Counted from the stretch's first letter, positions 4,043-32,220 are shown. The stretch is DNA of 64,000 nt from Rickettsiales bacterium (GCA_028281385.1 JANQJY010000049.1:73774-137773); one strand, 5' to 3'. The notes: generated by a model from the sequence alone, not told the origin. Made by a program: numbers and translations.

Positions 4043-4108
4043 GTCACCCCGGCGACGGCCGGGGTCCAGCCGAAAGTTGCTTTGGATACCGGCCTGCACC
4101 GGTATGAC
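4043..4108. repeat. REP/MITE-like palindromic element (family 1, two-hairpin form)
   Basis: Sequence is gtcaccccggcgacggccggggtccag-N12-ttggataccggcctgcaccggtatgac. The two arms are mutually inverted and each contains its own hairpin. The right 24-mer is 19/24 identical to 31747..31770, with compensatory stem changes. Confidence 0.6.
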
Positions 4109-4877
4109 GAATGGGTTCTCATTAGTGGAACTCTCCATCGTCCTCGTCATACTCGGCCTGCTCACCGGCGGCATCCTTACAGGGCAGAACCTCATCCGCA
4201 ATGCCGAGTTGCGTTCGGTGGTGACTGAATTTCAGGCCTATCAGACCGCCGTTAATACGTTCCGAGATAAATACTTTTCCTATCCTGGTGATATGTCCAA
4301 TGCGGAGGATTTTTGGGGAAGTATGAGTACGGGCACATGTCCCAATGCCACGGCGGGTGTGGGAACGGAAACCTGTAATGGGAACGGAAACGGTATATTA
4401 GAGATGGCATGGGCGAACGGACAGGTGTCGGAAGAATTTGCAGCCTGGCAACATTTGGCCAATGCCGGCTTAATTGGAGGAAGCTATACGGGGGTTTCGG
4501 GCCCCTCCAGTCAGATTCATTCTATTATTGGTGAAAATATACCGCAGGGAAAAACAGGTAATACCGGCTGGTCGTTTATATATGTTGGGACCATCACGGA
4601 CCCATTGGAACCTGATTGGTTTTTAGGTGAGTATGGCCAGCTATTACAAATTGGCGCACAGAACGGGTTTCACCGCACCGGGGGCAGCGCATTTACGCCG
4701 GAAGAAGTATGGAATATTGACATGAAAATAGACGATGGCAAACCGGGTTACGGCAAGATAAAAACGCTTAAATTCTCCAGTCGTCCCTGTGCGACAACCG
4801 ATGATCACACCACAGCGGAATATAACCTCACCAATTCGGACATTACCTGTAATATCAGGTTTACCGTATGGAAATAA
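4104..4877 (+). CDS. Prepilin-type N-terminal cleavage/methylation domain protein (type IV pilin or T2SS pseudopilin-like)
   Basis: MTNG|FSLVELSIVLVILGLLTGGIL is a class III signal peptide with Glu at +5. The open frame continues upstream to an ATG at 3819, so the start is uncertain. Confidence 0.75.
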   Translation: MTNGFSLVELSIVLVILGLLTGGILTGQNLIRNAELRSVVTEFQAYQTAVNTFRDKYFSYPGDMSNAEDFWGSMSTGTCPNATAGVGTETCNGNGNGILEMAWANGQVSEEFAAWQHLANAGLIGGSYTGVSGPSSQIHSIIGENIPQGKTGNTGWSFIYVGTITDPLEPDWFLGEYGQLLQIGAQNGFHRTGGSAFTPEEVWNIDMKIDDGKPGYGKIKTLKFSSRPCATTDDHTTAEYNLTNSDITCNIRFTVWK

Positions 4878-27998: not shown

Positions 27999-29301
27999 TA
28001 CTATCTACACCCATCCAAAGCTATTGGTGGTGTTGTGTCTGGGTTTTTCCAGCGGGCTGCCGTTGCTGCTGGTGGGATCGACGCTGGGCGCGTGGCTGTT
28101 TGAATCCGGCATTGATAAAAAAACCATCGGTCTGTTTGCCCTCGTCTCGCTGCCCTATTCCTTCAACTTCCTGTGGGCGCCGGTGGTGGATCATGTGCCT
28201 ATCCCGTTTTTCACCCGCAGGCTCGGACGCCGGCGCAGCTGGATGCTGCTGTTCCAGACCGGACTGCTCTGTTCGATCGCGGCTTTTGCCTTTGCCGATC
28301 CGCTCGAAAGCACGGCGATGATTGCGTGGATTGCGGTGATGATCGCCTTTTTCTCAGCGTCGCAGGATATTGTGATTGACGCCTACCGCACCGAATATCT
28401 CGACAAGACGCAATATGGTGAAGGTGCGTCGATTGCGGTGTTCGGCTATCGGCTCGGCATGCTCACGGCCGGAGCCGGGGCGCTGGCGCTGGCGGACCAG
28501 ACGGTGTGGCAGCTGGTCTATCTGATCATGGCGGCGGCGATGCTGGTCGGCATGCTGACGGTGCTGATTGCCGGTGAGCCGGAAATATCGTCATTGCGAG
28601 GAAGCGACGAAGGTGCTGACGAAGCAATCCAGTCTGGATTGCCGCGCTCGGACGATGTCCTCGCTCGCAATGACACATCAATGAAACACTGGCTCTATAC
28701 CGCTGTGATCATGCCGTTTGAGGATTTCATGAAACGCCATCCGCAGTGGCTGCTGATTCTGCTGCTGATCCTGTTCTACCGTATGCCGGACGGCTTTATC
28801 GGTTTTATCACCACGCCGTTTTTCCTCGATATCGGTTTCAGCAAAAGCCAAGTGGCCGCCATCGCCAAAATCTATGGTTTCGGTGCGACGCTGGCTGGTG
28901 CGTTCATCGGCGGTGCGCTGATCCATAAGCTCGGTAGCATTCGCTGTCTGTGGTATTTCCTGCTGTTCCAGATCCTCACCAACCTGACTTATGTCAGTTT
29001 GAGCCTTCTCGGCCCCGACCCGTATTATCTGATGTTCGCCATCAGCATGGATAATCTCTCGGGCGGAATGATTACCGCTGTCGCCGTCGCCTATATGATG
29101 AGCCTGTGCAACCTCACCTACACCGCGACGCAATATGCGTTGCTGTCATCGCTGGCGTCGCTGGCGAGCAAGACCATGGCCGGATGGGCTGGCGTGGTCG
29201 CCGACATCCATGGTTGGAGCGCGATGTTCGGCCTAAGCGCGATCCTTGGCATTCCGGCGCTTTTGGTGCTGTTTCTCCTGCGCCGCCGCCTTGCCGGATG
29301 A
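27979..29301 (+). CDS. ampG: AmpG-family muropeptide MFS permease
   Basis: The GTG-start ORF MSLFHHFTIYTHPKLLVVLCLGFSSGLPLLL... is collinear with AmpG. It has 12+ TM segments and carries a repeat-derived insert in the central loop. Confidence 0.9.
   Translation: MSLFHHFTIYTHPKLLVVLCLGFSSGLPLLLVGSTLGAWLFESGIDKKTIGLFALVSLPYSFNFLWAPVVDHVPIPFFTRRLGRRRSWMLLFQTGLLCSIAAFAFADPLESTAMIAWIAVMIAFFSASQDIVIDAYRTEYLDKTQYGEGASIAVFGYRLGMLTAGAGALALADQTVWQLVYLIMAAAMLVGMLTVLIAGEPEISSLRGSDEGADEAIQSGLPRSDDVLARNDTSMKHWLYTAVIMPFEDFMKRHPQWLLILLLILFYRMPDGFIGFITTPFFLDIGFSKSQVAAIAKIYGFGATLAGAFIGGALIHKLGSIRCLWYFLLFQILTNLTYVSLSLLGPDPYYLMFAISMDNLSGGMITAVAVAYMMSLCNLTYTATQYALLSSLASLASKTMAGWAGVVADIHGWSAMFGLSAILGIPALLVLFLLRRRLAG
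28590..28674. repeat. Palindromic REP/MITE-like element (family 3) inserted in frame inside ampG
   Basis: The termini gtcattgcgag and ctcgcaatgac are perfect 11-bp inverted repeats, with a central palindrome gcaatccaga/tctggattgc. It translates as SLRGSDEGADEAIQSGLPRSDDVLARND. Confidence 0.7.
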
Positions 29302-29535
29302 CGGCATCAGCAGGTGTTCGACGGGAGTCTCGAGCGCCATGGCGATGCGCACGATATCGCGCAGCTGCATGTTGCCGCGCCCGCATTCGAGCAGATCGAG
29401 GGTGTGGATGCTGACCCTGCTGCGGCGTGCAAGCTGTTTCAGGCTTAGATGTTTTTCCAGACGGATCAGACGAAGCCGCGCGCCGATGATGCGGTGCAGT
29501 TCTTTGGTGTTATGATTGATTTTTTGGTGATTCAT
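29233..29535 (-). CDS. XRE-family helix-turn-helix transcriptional regulator
   Basis: LRLIRLEKHLSLKQLARRSRVSIHTLDLLECGRGNMQLRDIVRIAMAL is a Cro/C1-type HTH. Its 3' end overlaps the ampG 3' end by 69 nt. Confidence 0.8.
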   Translation of the reverse strand: MNHQKINHNTKELHRIIGARLRLIRLEKHLSLKQLARRSRVSIHTLDLLECGRGNMQLRDIVRIAMALETPVEHLLMPSSGKAAAQEKQHQKRRNAKDRA

Positions 29536-29671
29536 GATTGGTCTCCCTCACTGGTAAGGTTGGTATCGGGAGCCAAAACCACGCTACTACACGTGTGGGT
29601 TTATTCCCTGCGAGCAGGTATTGTATTCACCGCACTCCCGACGTAAGGGAGTGTTTGCGTATTTTTCATTC

Positions 29672-29761
29672 GTCATCCCGAGTGAGTCGCGCCGTAGCGT
29701 TAGCGTAGGCGGGCGACGAGGGATCCAGATTCCTCCAAACCTTCGGTTTGTTCGGAATGAC
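29672..29761. repeat. REP/MITE-like element (family 2), copy B
   Basis: gtcatcccgagtgag...gacgagggatccagattcctcc...ttcggaatgac. It has the same ends and core as copy A, with a longer internal tagcg-rich segment. Confidence 0.7.
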
Positions 29762-29883
29762 GGTGTAACAAATACACAGACACAAAACCCCTCTGTCGGG
29801 AGGGGAAGTCCGGTAGTAGTGGGCGGTTTTGACGCCAGAGATGAGTATAAAAGATTCGCCGCCGGGCCGCAAGCCTCTTGCTT

Positions 29884-29915
29884 GCTTACGGCCATGTCGC
29901 CTCGGGCGGCGGGAG
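29884..29915. repeat. Direct repeat 1: pseudo-copy of the hemF 3' end
   Basis: gcttacgg + ccatgtcgcctcgggcggcggg. The reverse complement reads LPPPEATWP-TAA, mirroring the true hemF end SLPPEARWP-TAG. Confidence 0.7.
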
Positions 29916-29916
29916 G

Positions 29917-29944
29917 TTGCCTTTTGTCCGTTCTATGGTAAAAT
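29917..29944 (+). promoter_or_regulatory. Putative sigma-70-type promoter of the TA operon (the transcript would be leaderless)
   Basis: TTGCCT-16 nt-TAAAAT, with the -10 element ending 6 nt before the antitoxin ATG. Confidence 0.35.
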
Positions 29945-29950
29945 CGCCCG

Positions 29951-30169
29951 ATGGAATCCTTTTTTACAGAAACAGGAAGTGAACTGGACGCCGCCCTGCA
30001 GCGGCTGGTGGCCAGCAGCGGCAAACCGGCCGACTATCATATCCGCCGGGCGTTGGAGAATTATCTTGAGGATATGCGCGACGCGGCTATTGCCGAAGAG
30101 CGTATCGCGCAATCGGAAGGCCGGATGAGCAGCGAGGAATTAAGGGTATCGCTTGGGCTGGACGATTGA
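29951..30169 (+). CDS. Type II antitoxin, RelB/ParD-like ribbon-helix-helix
   Basis: 72 aa. It overlaps the toxin ORF by 17 nt. The motif ...YHIRRALENYLEDMRD is RHH-like. Confidence 0.75.
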   Translation: MESFFTETGSELDAALQRLVASSGKPADYHIRRALENYLEDMRDAAIAEERIAQSEGRMSSEELRVSLGLDD

Positions 30170-30419
30170 ATATGACAAGGCCGTTGGTAAAGACCTGAAA
30201 CGGCTCGATACAGCAACCGCAAAGCGCATTCTCGATTATATGGATATGACGGTCGCCGAACTGGAGCATCCCAGACTTCGGGGTAAGGCGTTGCGGCATG
30301 ATCTGAAAGGATTGTGGCGGTATCGCGTGGGAGATTACCGGGTGTTATGCCGGCTGGAAGATGCGCAGCAGGTTGTTTTCGTGCTGCAGATCGAACATCG
30401 CCGCAGCGCTTACGGCTAG
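30153..30419 (+). CDS. Type II toxin, RelE/ParE family
   Basis: 88 aa. ...LKGLWRYRVGDYRVLCRLEDAQQVVFVLQIEHRRSAY is the canonical RelE/StbE C-terminal pattern. Confidence 0.85.
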   Translation: MGWTIEYDKAVGKDLKRLDTATAKRILDYMDMTVAELEHPRLRGKALRHDLKGLWRYRVGDYRVLCRLEDAQQVVFVLQIEHRRSAYG

Positions 30420-30445
30420 GGCCATCTCGCCTCGGGCGGCAGGGA
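30408..30445. repeat. Direct repeat 2: authentic hemF 3' end plus the relE stop
   Basis: gcttacgg-ctaggg-ccatctcgcctcgggcggcagg. It matches repeat 1 at 8/8 and 20/22 positions around a 6-nt insertion. Confidence 0.7.
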
Positions 30446-31423
30446 CATCAGAATCGCCTCGGTATTGCCGCCGGTCATTAGCCCGAAGCGCGTACCGCGG
30501 TCATAGAGCAGATTATATTCGGCATACCAGCCGCGCTTTTGCAATTGCCATTCGCGCTGGTCGTCGGTCCACTCTTTGTTCATATGACGGCGGATGAGTT
30601 CGGGATAGATATCGCGAAAGGCGCACCCGACTGCCTGGGTGAAGGCGAAACATGGTTCCCAGCCCATGCCGGTATCGGCGGCCAGTGCCATGCCGCTTGC
30701 GGTATGTTTGCCGTCGGCGCCGCCTTTGCCGAAACGCCCGGAGGTGACAGGCGAGTGGTCCGTTCCCAGCCCGTTCAGCCCAAGATAATCATAGAAAATA
30801 CCGCCGACGCCACGCGCCATGTTGCGATGGGGAATATAGAAATATTCATCGCACCAGGCTTTGAACGTCGGATAGAATGCCGGATCATAAGGATCGCAGG
30901 CGTCTTTGAAGGCATTGTGAAAATCCTGCGTGTCCTGTTCGAGCGGATACATCGGGTTCAAATCACCGCCGCCACCGAACCACAGGCGCGTGCCACCACC
31001 TATGCAGATCATGCGGGTATTGAAATGGGCAGCGGGAACCAGGGGCGAGTGCTGGTGCGCGACCAGGGAAATGCCCGAGGCCCAGTAACGTGGATCCTCC
31101 GCGGCGCCGGGAATTTCGTTTCTGAATTTTTCGTCAAACTCGCCATAGACGGTGGAGATATTCACCCCGACTTTTTCGAAGACACGCCCGCGCATCAGCG
31201 AGATTTCTCCTCCTCCTTCGGTTTTTGCGTTAAGCTTCCCGCTACGGTCTGCTGGCAGCGGTTCTTTCTCCCAGGCAGTGCGTTCGAACTGTCCTACCTC
31301 GCGGTCTTTCATCGGACCGTCAAGTTCCTGTTCCAGCTGCTCATAGCTGGCGCAAATCCCATCGCGCAACTGGCGAAACCATGCGGCGGCCGTGGCCTGT
31401 TTGTCTTCCAAGGAGTCTGTCAT
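30416..31423 (-). CDS. hemF: Oxygen-dependent coproporphyrinogen III oxidase
   Basis: WFGGGGDL, YFYIPHRNMARGVGGIFYD and GTRFGL..GGNTEAILMSLPP blocks. The start is set at MTDSLEDKQ; the frame stays open to 31462, but that extension is repeat sequence. Confidence 0.93.
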   Translation of the reverse strand: MTDSLEDKQATAAAWFRQLRDGICASYEQLEQELDGPMKDREVGQFERTAWEKEPLPADRSGKLNAKTEGGGEISLMRGRVFEKVGVNISTVYGEFDEKFRNEIPGAAEDPRYWASGISLVAHQHSPLVPAAHFNTRMICIGGGTRLWFGGGGDLNPMYPLEQDTQDFHNAFKDACDPYDPAFYPTFKAWCDEYFYIPHRNMARGVGGIFYDYLGLNGLGTDHSPVTSGRFGKGGADGKHTASGMALAADTGMGWEPCFAFTQAVGCAFRDIYPELIRRHMNKEWTDDQREWQLQKRGWYAEYNLLYDRGTRFGLMTGGNTEAILMSLPPEARWP

Positions 31424-31442
31424 TCCCGCGCAGGCGGGGATC
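31419..31442. repeat. 24-bp hairpin repeat (family 1), left terminus of the GIY-YIG unit
   Basis: gtcattcccgcgcaggcggggatc is 23/24 identical to the reverse complement of 31747..31770. Confidence 0.75.
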
Positions 31443-31445
31443 TTT

Positions 31446-31721
31446 TCAGCTAAGTTGGTCATACAAATCTCTCCATTCGGGGTTCATTTGGTTGATTCGT
31501 TTCATTTTCCAGTCCCGGTTCCATTTTTTCATGTATTTTTCACGATGAATGGCGGTCTCCGCATCATCATATATTTCATAATATACCAGTTTCTTTACAT
31601 GATATTTAGAGGCAAATCCTTTCATTATTTCATTTTTATGTTCACTGACACGTTTTACCAAATCGCTTGTGATGCCTGTATTAAATAACCCCATCTTTTT
31701 TGTTTGCCAATATATAGACAT
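31446..31721 (-). CDS. GIY-YIG nuclease family protein (small COG2827/YhbQ-like type)
   Basis: 91 aa. ...GITSDLVKRVSEHKNEIMKGFASKYHVKKLVYYEIYDDAETAIHREKYMKKWNRDWKMKRINQMNPEWRDLY matches the GIY-YIG fold blocks (R..EH, YYE, REK.LK.W.R). Confidence 0.85.
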   Translation of the reverse strand: MSIYWQTKKMGLFNTGITSDLVKRVSEHKNEIMKGFASKYHVKKLVYYEIYDDAETAIHREKYMKKWNRDWKMKRINQMNPEWRDLYDQLS

Positions 31722-31743
31722 AATAGTGTTTTTTCATAGTCTT

Positions 31744-32220
31744 TCAGATTCCCGCCTGCGCGGGAATGACATTTGCCTGTCGGTTAATCTCTCCGGCCAG
31801 CATGGCAGCGCTTAACGCCAGATTAAGTGAACGGGCGGGGCCGTGCATAGGGATGGTTAGCCGCGTATCGGCTGTGGCATGTATTTCCTGCGGCAGGCCA
31901 GCAGACTCACGCCCGAACACGAAAAAGTCATTCTTTCCCATCGGGTGCGATGTGTAGGGAATGTCGCTTTGGGTGGTCATGATGATCAATTGTCCTTTCT
32001 TTTCCTTCCGGTATGCTTCAAACGCATCCCATGAACGGTGCCGCTGCCAGGTCACAAGCTCCATATAATCCATACCGGCGCGGCGAATTCGTTTGTCATC
32101 CAACGGAAAACCGCAAGGTTCGACGACATGCAGTGCGATATCCATACAGGCGCATAATCGCATCATCGCGCCCAGATTCTGCGGAATGTCAGGTTGATAC
32201 AAAACAAACTGTGCCTGCAT
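31744..32220 (-). CDS. trmL: tRNA (cytidine/uridine34-2'-O)-methyltransferase TrmL (SpoU family)
   Basis: 158 aa with LYQPDIPQNLGAMMRLCA...FVFGRESAGLP...IPM...RSLNL blocks, collinear with YibK/TrmL. Confidence 0.9.
   Translation of the reverse strand: MQAQFVLYQPDIPQNLGAMMRLCACMDIALHVVEPCGFPLDDKRIRRAGMDYMELVTWQRHRSWDAFEAYRKEKKGQLIIMTTQSDIPYTSHPMGKNDFFVFGRESAGLPQEIHATADTRLTIPMHGPARSLNLALSAAMLAGEINRQANVIPAQAGI
31747..31770. repeat. 24-bp hairpin repeat (family 1), right terminus of the GIY-YIG unit
   Basis: gattcccgcctgcgcgggaatgac. Its reverse complement encodes VIPAQAGI, the last 8 residues of TrmL. Confidence 0.75.

Follow-up and report, generated by a model that had tools for sequence, protein, structure and literature searches.

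What is a nuclease gene of under a hundred codons doing between two inverted hairpins, wedged into the boundary of two housekeeping genes, and does it move? The question is raised by a stretch of 64,000 nucleotides from a Rickettsiales bacterium (GCA_028281385.1, JANQJY010000049.1:73774-137773; 'the window' denotes this whole stretch), in which an AT-rich GIY-YIG nuclease gene lies on the minus strand between two inverted hairpins at the boundary of trmL and hemF. The initial annotation proposed a minimal selfish element whose nuclease recognises hairpins ending in GTCAT, and saw in it the autonomous parent of short repeats resembling miniature inverted-repeat transposable elements (MITEs) elsewhere in the window; it was aware of no published system in which a small GIY-YIG protein is paired with hairpin repeats. 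Such a system has, however, been published under the layout NTS-ssnA-NTS (Chenal et al. 2025; PMC11893778). We report here that the segment at positions 31418-31771 (354 bp) is, judging from its sequence, very probably one copy of this module. The locus is a new, damaged example of the system described in 2025 and not a new kind of transposon.

The Ssn family consists of single-domain GIY-YIG nucleases (CDD cd10448, GIY-YIG_unchar_3), and the NTS repeat, CGTCATTCCCGCGMAVGCGGGAATCYRG, of the dRS3 palindrome core with oriented flanks; the broader class of such repeats has been named Ssn-related motifs, or SRMs (PMC11893778). Ssn proteins of three Neisseria species and of Wolbachia bind their flanking hairpin as single-stranded DNA (ssDNA) and cut a few nucleotides upstream of it, and binding is restricted to ssDNA and to the GTCAT-to-CCAG orientation (PMC11893778). 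The strongest binding determinant is the C right after the palindrome, while cleavage, which is Mg-dependent and falls just upstream of the hairpin, is determined by the three bases (GTC) before it (PMC11893778). Altering the palindrome while keeping the structure abolished the activity of Neisseria meningitidis SsnA, in which residues Y6, Y17 and E64 have also been mutated (PMC11893778). In N. meningitidis, SsnA restricts incoming NTS-bearing single-stranded transforming DNA; across the family, SRMs were found on both sides in 42% of Ssn homologs, and the NTS-ssnA-NTS layout was likened by the authors to an insertion sequence (IS) and to RAYT/REP systems (PMC11893778). Our search of the literature found no later report on the mobility of Ssn modules.

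Results

An NTS-ssnA-NTS module between trmL and hemF

The arms of the module form an inverted repeat of 26 nt (31418-31443 and 31746-31771) in which 25 of 26 positions agree (96% complementary). This extends by two positions the repeat first noticed between 31419-31442 and the reverse complement of 31747-31770, where we likewise counted 23 identities in 24. Searched for with up to three mismatches, the 24-mer gave three matches in the real window and none in dinucleotide-preserving shuffles of it. The upstream hairpin, or right arm (31746-31771, minus strand), reads TGTC-ATTCCCGC-GCAG-GCGGGAAT-CTGA, forward on the coding strand, and folds into a perfect 8-bp stem (-8.9 kcal/mol, z -3.1). The downstream hairpin, or left arm (31418-31443, plus strand), is forward on the plus strand and folds more weakly (-6.3 kcal/mol), with one stem mismatch (GGGGATC). 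Both arms point their GTCAT ends outward and read TGTC-ATTCCCGC...GGGrAT-C, retaining GTC ahead of the palindrome and C behind it, and they match the NTS consensus CGTCATTCCCGCGMAVGCGGGAATCYRG at 26 of 28 positions (right arm) and 24 of 28 (left arm).

The arms stand 9 nt upstream and 2 nt downstream of the gene (3 nt downstream when measured from the 24-mer), and the locus falls within the published definition of SRM association, a hairpin no farther than 500 bp away both 5' and 3' of the gene. Under the strict published SRM pattern the left arm is the sole match in 64 kb, where shuffles give 0.2, and the right arm misses the pattern solely at its last base. This pattern being too strict for a census, we used instead a structural scan (YGTC, a hairpin, then C), which finds six hairpins in the 64 kb. 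An Rfam scan of the window gave no match.

A broken ssnA gene with an Ssn-family product

The gene between the arms is interrupted. It had been read as an open reading frame (ORF) of 91 residues (31446-31721), which lacks the GIY motif; three-frame translation places the true start at an ATG at 31737, from which 18 codons (MKKHYYVYILANKKDGVI) lead into a premature TAA (31683-31681). The remainder runs on in another frame down to the final stop at 31448-31446, and we accordingly delimit the ssnA pseudogene, a single-domain GIY-YIG gene of the Ssn family, as 31446-31737 on the minus strand. One extra A near 31681/31682 breaks the frame and severs the GIY motif from the rest. Deleting one A (TTTAATACA to TTTATACA) restores a protein of 96 residues, homologs having 94-99, which aligns end to end with 32 homologs and carries the invariant Y8, I9, Y19, G21, R29, H33, E66 and N85. 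A tblastn search of the window with this reconstruction returns residues 1-18 and 13-96 in two different frames: the catalytic Y8, Y19 and E66 are all encoded, but not in one intact frame, since Y8 lies upstream of the frameshift and the TAA. The frameshift marks either a pseudogene or an assembly error. When metagenomes were scanned with an exact 29-mer from the ssnA start, nothing matched, and neither a second strain nor an intact copy was recovered. As sequenced, this copy cannot act as an autonomous parent.

Among Pfam families the product matches only PF01541 (GIY-YIG, E 4.9e-11), with a sub-threshold, overlapping match to T5orf172. The reconstruction is 49% identical over 86 residues (E 2e-34) to a putative SsnA ortholog of N. 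gonorrhoeae (L086:1489-1773, 94 codons), the published criterion for the family being homology to Neisseria SsnA at E < 1e-10, and Y8, Y19 and E66 of the window align with gonococcal Y6, Y17 and E64. From its length of 94 codons and the positions of Y6, Y17 and E64, we infer that the gonococcal gene is orthologous to N. meningitidis SsnA. Its source is the chromosome NZ_CP119142.1 (L086, 2.17 Mb), which is filed in PLSDB as a plasmid; PLSDB contains complete N. gonorrhoeae chromosomes labelled as plasmids. The gonococcal ssnA frame seems to begin at ATT, not ATG.

Searched by sequence, the PDB yields a sole match, BH0048 (1zg2, UPF0213-type), at E 0.005 over the N-terminal 60 residues, which makes the earlier label of a COG2827-type protein a loose one. 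NCBIfam has no specific model for the ssnA product, its group I intron endonuclease model scoring 17 bits against a cut-off of 56, and a tblastn search of phage records with the product gave no match. On every sequence criterion that could be checked, except for the broken frame, the product is a member of the Ssn family.

Acquisition at an overlapping gene junction

Upstream of the module lies trmL (31772-32220, minus strand), encoding a SpoU-type methyltransferase (PF00588, E 7.7e-33), and downstream of it hemF (30416-31423, minus strand), encoding the oxygen-dependent coproporphyrinogen III oxidase (PF01218, E 1.7e-82). The order petCBA, trmL, hemF, MFS, pfkB is preserved in relatives, the nearest of which have HemF homologs that are 72-73% identical. 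In three of them (the loci labelled L081, L082 and L083) the two genes overlap by 4-10 nt, nothing stands between them and no hairpin occurs at any other point of the loci, so the junction check that the initial annotation had suggested reveals an empty site. Because the nearest relatives have overlapping genes and nothing between them, the module is an insertion. Base composition agrees: ssnA has 34% G+C, hemF 58%, trmL 53% and the window 52%, and the AT-richness relative to both neighbours that had been noted from a count of 42 G+C in the 120 nt at 31501-31620 was borne out, the count itself being reproduced. Judged by the empty junction and by composition, the module is an acquired insertion; the 34% G+C of its gene, against 52% for the window, makes horizontal transfer the probable route.

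The neighbouring genes have become tied to the repeats. Comparison of the TrmL C-terminus with relatives indicates that trmL runs through the right arm, taking its tail (...NVIPAQAGI) and its stop codon from the repeat. At the other end, the hemF start codon (31423-31421, minus strand) lies within the terminal ATGAC of the left arm, and the HemF N-terminus, MTDSLEDKQA, aligns with MSLDEKQ and MKLSDKQA of relatives. The history that we propose is that the module entered a tight, overlapping trmL-hemF junction, for which it would now supply the trmL stop and the hemF start, and that this ssnA copy was later inactivated by the +1 frameshift, if this is not a fault of the assembly. No target-site duplication (TSD) is present at the window module, whose flanks read ...GGCAAA and GACTCC.... 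As the relatives with the empty site are about 72% identical in HemF, the insertion event is not recent.

Two further observations concern the surroundings of the module. In a further relative (L084:2060-2866) an unrelated gene for a 268-aa product, on the opposite strand and with no Pfam match, lies between trmL and hemF, which means that this junction takes different insertions in different lineages. In the window itself, the stretch from hemF to the MFS gene (29233-30419) holds a ParE toxin gene (30153-30419), an RHH antitoxin gene (29951-30169) and an HTH_31 regulator gene (29233-29535). These genes are absent in the closest relatives, L081 having an unrelated 170-aa gene there and L083 nothing, and they make up a second small insertion, adjoining the ssnA module. 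Between 29540 and 29950 there is no clean ORF and no Rfam match.

Gene-less double hairpins in the window

Two shorter elements in the window consist of paired hairpins with no gene between them. The first (2207-2285) lies between ORFs of 481 aa (719-2164) and 136 aa (2298-2708). Its left hairpin is long and atypical (TGTC-CCGGC...GCCGG), and its right hairpin is of the NTS type on the minus strand (CGTCATTCCCGTGAAGGCGGGAATCT), matching NTS at 25 of 28 positions. The second (4043-4108) combines two SRM variants with different stems, TGTC-ACCCCGGC-GACG-GCCGGGGT-CCAG on the plus strand and CGTC-ATACCGG-TGCAGG-CCGGTAT-CCAA on the minus strand. On either strand each element forms a pair of separate hairpins (z -3.2 to -3.9; -3.3 and -3.6 for 2207-2285), and in both the GTCAT ends point outward, as they do in the ssnA module.

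These elements had been interpreted as internal-deletion derivatives of the nuclease unit, partly on the resemblance of their right 24-mers to 31747-31770. The resemblance is as reported (22 of 24 positions for 2262-2285 and 19 of 24 for 4085-4108), but the interpretation does not survive comparison of the whole elements. Only one of the four hairpins (2262-2285) is of the module type, with the AATCT signature; the other three differ in the stem, and by eye the spacers have no similarity to the ends of the ssnA ORF. As far as their sequence tells, the short elements are not deletion products of this ssnA copy; we infer that they belong, together with the module's hairpins, to one repeat superfamily, in which they would correspond to REPIN or NIME elements. 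The activity of N. meningitidis SsnA was abolished by a change of palindrome (PMC11893778), and by analogy the variant-stem hairpins are probably not substrates of this protein.

In all three ATTCCCG-type hairpins of the window (at 31419, 31770 and 2285) the palindrome is followed by AATCT. Over 90% of the family has AATCC(AG) there, and AATCT is a variant particular to this lineage at a position that hardly varies otherwise. The second short element also reaches into a gene, its terminal ATGAC supplying the ATG (4104) of a prepilin-type gene (4104-4877; MTNGFSLVELSIVLV...) with an N-terminal methylation motif (Pfam N_methyl, E 4e-4, just under the curated cut-off). We considered the hairpin ATGAC as a general source of start codons and rejected it: at 261 hairpins of other genomes, outward ORFs of at least 100 codons occurred in 15%, against 20% for all ATGs. 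The hemF and prepilin-type starts within hairpins look like local co-option.

Hairpins around ssnA homologs in other genomes

Among 185,579 species genomes we found at least 596 relatives, spread over many phyla, and we surveyed the best 80 loci, 79 of which were usable. When the upstream flank was aligned with the reverse complement of the downstream flank, strong flanking inverted repeats appeared in 51 of the 79 loci, at a median distance of 12 nt upstream and 5 nt downstream of the ORF. The structural scan found a forward hairpin upstream together with a reverse one downstream in 41 of 79 loci (a hairpin on at least one side in 68), and in independent IMG/VR contigs both sides were occupied in 19 of 41 and at least one in 27. 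Given a background of about 1.2 such hairpins per kb, a correctly oriented pair is expected by chance in about 1% of loci. Of the initial annotation's proposal of a minimal selfish element, the pairing of nuclease and GTCAT hairpins stands, as published for the family and as seen in these 41 loci, while the nuclease as the drive of a transposon is unproven.

Stems differ between loci with compensation (ATTCCCGC, ATTCCTGC, ATCCCCGC, ATGCCCGC, ATACCGGC and long Bradyrhizobium stems). In 45 aligned hairpins, whose preselection by the hairpin scan biases the percentage paired upward, double compensatory changes occur at six of eight stem pairs, and GTC and the 3' C are invariant. Among unrelated genomes DNA similarity covers the ORF and about 40-50 nt on each side, ending at the hairpins. 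The span from GTC to GAC is mostly about 350-430 bp (349-560 overall). None of the 41 canonical units has a TSD (a direct repeat of at least 3 nt), and no target motif surrounds them beyond a Y at -1, which is itself part of the hairpin motif.

Could the hairpins be generic REP-like repeats or terminators that happen to surround an unrelated small gene? They do sit at gene boundaries, the usual places for REP-type repeats, and a T-rich run follows the plus-strand arm. Neither arm, however, was called terminator-like on the coding strand, like-oriented hairpins stand close to the ORF in the 51 loci across many phyla, and the pairing of protein and hairpin has been shown biochemically (PMC11893778). 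The survey of the family's loci and of the IMG/VR contigs refutes chance juxtaposition, to which we give next to no credence.

Some loci have a more elaborate layout. In L027, L043 and L045 (Azospirillum, Bradyrhizobium and a betaproteobacterial metagenome-assembled genome, MAG) a complete doublet stands on each side of ssnA (forward-reverse, gene, forward-reverse), and in loci of this type the two halves of a doublet often differ in stem, like the short elements of the window.

Stable contexts, a unit in two copies and a two-orientation site

Widely seen ssnA proteins were tried as markers of multiple insertion sites and discarded: each of two homologs found on 24 contigs showed a single, unchanging genomic context. 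Rhizobium plasmids yielded no informative empty site: the gene is present in all eight close ones, and the distant ones lose synteny at the neighbouring gene. In one locus (L097:91-2807, among the contexts of P0071) an ssnA homolog adjoins a ComEC-type DNA-uptake channel gene (DUF4131, Competence, Lactamase_B), an adjacency that is suggestive given the role in Neisseria transformation and that could be coincidence.

Such contexts bear on the possibility that Ssn and its repeats have been domesticated and modulate recombination or natural transformation for the host, the hairpins being relics or regulators. Consistent with this are the many homologs that are stable, single-copy and in a fixed context, the one beside comEC, the transformation phenotype in N. 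meningitidis (PMC11893778), and, in the window, the prepilin-type protein (as in DNA-uptake pili) encoded beside a doublet, although its Pfam match is just under the cut-off. At the locus studied here, however, the gene is broken and the repeats are sparse (six hairpins in 64 kb), and foreign composition together with absence in relatives fits a decaying acquisition better. A host function is possible and, on balance, somewhat doubtful.

In a Candidatus Desulfacyla euxinica MAG, a unit of 517 bp occurs on two contigs (L011:2868-3384 and L017:2868-3384) with 98.6% identity; it contains ssnA, the NTS pair and a second hairpin pair, and is bounded by an outer 20-bp inverted repeat (GCATTACCAGTTTGTTAAAG and CTTTAACAAACTGGTAATGC). 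This has the appearance of a recent duplication of a nested or composite element. Bradyrhizobium species differ in how the ssnA unit lies at one shared chromosomal site, L016, L024 and L061 having it in one orientation and L026 and L052 in the other, and the breakpoints fall inside the hairpins. Identity is 71-73% between the two forms, as against 78-96% in their flanks, which looks like allele replacement and not a simple flip; the site suggests either cassette replacement or an old inversion. A ~900-bp indel and extra hairpin copies adjoin it.

The Bradyrhizobium site is in keeping with a homing-like account, by which ssnA invades existing doublets: an Ssn cut in replicating or incoming ssDNA would be repaired from a gene-bearing copy, with the hairpins as homology. 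The polarity shared by gene-less doublets and the module, the lack of TSDs and the cassette-like span of most units (~350-430 bp) also speak for it. The hairpins, on the other hand, offer just ~25-50 nt of homology, a site that has a doublet in one strain but ssnA in another did not turn up, and the Bradyrhizobium pattern could also reflect an old inversion followed by fast divergence. At the trmL-hemF junction, moreover, the relatives have neither hairpins nor gene, so the whole module reached a hairpin-free site. We regard homing of this kind as unlikely.

Discussion

Several features of the locus weigh against its interpretation as an acquired copy of NTS-ssnA-NTS. As sequenced, ssnA cannot encode a full-length protein, and no second copy exists elsewhere in the 64-kb window. 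The best protein match among 5.8 billion sequences is only 66% identical, and both arms have AATCT, AATCC being the reading in over 90% of family hairpins. The nearest hairpins of the gonococcal gene are reversed in polarity (reverse upstream, forward downstream), and the outward-facing geometry is common, not universal. Finally, with relatives at about 72% identity in HemF and the best protein at 66%, the insertion is loosely dated and the junction cannot be reconstructed base by base.

How could such a module have moved? With both GTCAT ends pointing outward, the cuts are predicted immediately beyond the two ends of the module, one per strand. A GIY-YIG domain alone performs hydrolytic nicking, and to our knowledge no covalent intermediate or strand-transfer chemistry has been described for GIY-YIG enzymes. 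The module contains no strand-transfer recombinase of the DDE, HUH/Y1, serine or tyrosine type, GIY-YIG being its sole domain. A hydrolytic nuclease that lacks strand transfer cannot transpose alone, so that spread of any kind has to go through the host's replication or recombination; we consider nuclease-triggered breaks with host recombination repair more likely than true transposition. That the Ssn protein drives movement of the module at all is a hypothesis.

A minimal autonomous transposon, with the GIY-YIG protein acting as transposase on the terminal hairpins and the short doublets as its MITE-like derivatives, would account for many of the same features: inverted repeats at both ends, the empty site in relatives and the foreign G+C, homology across phyla that is confined to the unit, the near-identical Desulfacyla units on two contigs with their extra 20-bp terminal inverted repeat, and the outward polarity shared by the gene-less doublets. 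The predicted cut sites would fall at the ends of the unit, and the resemblance to IS and RAYT/REP has been noted before (PMC11893778). Against it speaks the enzyme, a hydrolytic nuclease with no second domain. On each strand only the 5' hairpin should be cleavable, so that the second cut needed for IS200/IS605-type excision would be missing. The lack of a TSD of at least 3 nt in 41 canonical units also speaks against it, although this alone would fit IS200-like elements (IS200/IS605) as well. Further points against it are the two proteins that each occur on 24 contigs in one context, as stable single-copy genes would, the non-matching stems and lack of ORF remnants in the window doublets, and the frameshift in this copy. 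We consider an autonomous transposon improbable.

A broader proposal is that NTS-ssnA-NTS is a mobile cassette of a new mechanistic class, in which hairpin-guided GIY-YIG nicks in ssDNA at the outward-facing ends together with host replication or recombination would move or copy the ~350-bp unit and the doublets without TSDs, possibly into existing doublets. We hold this proposal tentatively, as a rather doubtful one. If it is true, the window records one insertion between overlapping housekeeping genes and the Bradyrhizobium site records a cassette exchange. The transposon, homing-like and host-function accounts are not mutually exclusive.

For annotation, the consequences of reading the locus as an acquired, damaged NTS-ssnA-NTS module are practical. 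The gene should be labelled as a frameshifted ssnA with NTS/SRM repeats, and annotators should treat the unusual TrmL tail VIPAQAGI and the start codon of HemF as contributed by the repeats. The case adds a well-bounded insertion of a module into a conserved junction of overlapping genes. The family numbers, namely the absence of TSDs in 41 units, the outward polarity shared with doublets and the two-orientation Bradyrhizobium site, bear on the question of mobile versus domesticated that the published work left (PMC11893778). Knowledge of the enzyme is unchanged by these findings.

Comparison with known systems

The UPF0213/YhbQ proteins (COG2827; BH0048, 1zg2) are, like the ssnA product, small stand-alone GIY-YIG proteins of about 100 aa. 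The similarity between them is marginal (E 0.005), and we know of no report of hairpin flanks for this group. GIY-YIG homing endonucleases of the I-TevI type share the catalytic domain, and their selfish way of spreading, through breaks and repair, may have a parallel here. They differ in having a separate DNA-binding domain, in cutting double-stranded DNA and in residing in introns or as free-standing phage genes, whereas the window ssnA encodes one domain, is expected from family data to be specific for ssDNA and has no match in phage records.

The likeness to RAYT/REP-REPIN systems is one of architecture: a single-copy gene inside inverted copies of its target hairpin, scattered intergenic doublets, an ssDNA substrate and no TSD. 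The chemistry differs, GIY-YIG enzymes being hydrolytic and not of the HUH/Y1 type, without the covalent 5'-phosphotyrosine chemistry needed for strand transfer, and the flank of the module is GTCAT where that of REP is a GTAG-type tetranucleotide. With the dRS3 repeats and NIMEs, the NTS palindrome core (ATTCCC-N8-GGGAAT) is identical to dRS3, and paired hairpins with short spacers resemble the mosaic arrays, although dRS3 is defined without oriented flanks. In Neisseria, dRS3 is best known as the target of filamentous-prophage integration with an IS110/Piv-like enzyme.

The closest counterpart is the Ssn/NTS system itself, represented by SsnA of N. meningitidis. The window differs from it in its frameshifted gene and in AATCT for AATCC, and in polarity, the nearest hairpins facing outward here and inward at the gonococcal locus. 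Few repeats occur in the 64 kb from its host, an uncultured, alphaproteobacterium-like organism, whereas pathogenic Neisseria have hundreds per genome. What the two have in common is a single domain of ~95 aa with the catalytic Tyr, Tyr and Glu in register, the order NTS-gene-NTS, and hairpins that keep both GTC and the 3' C.

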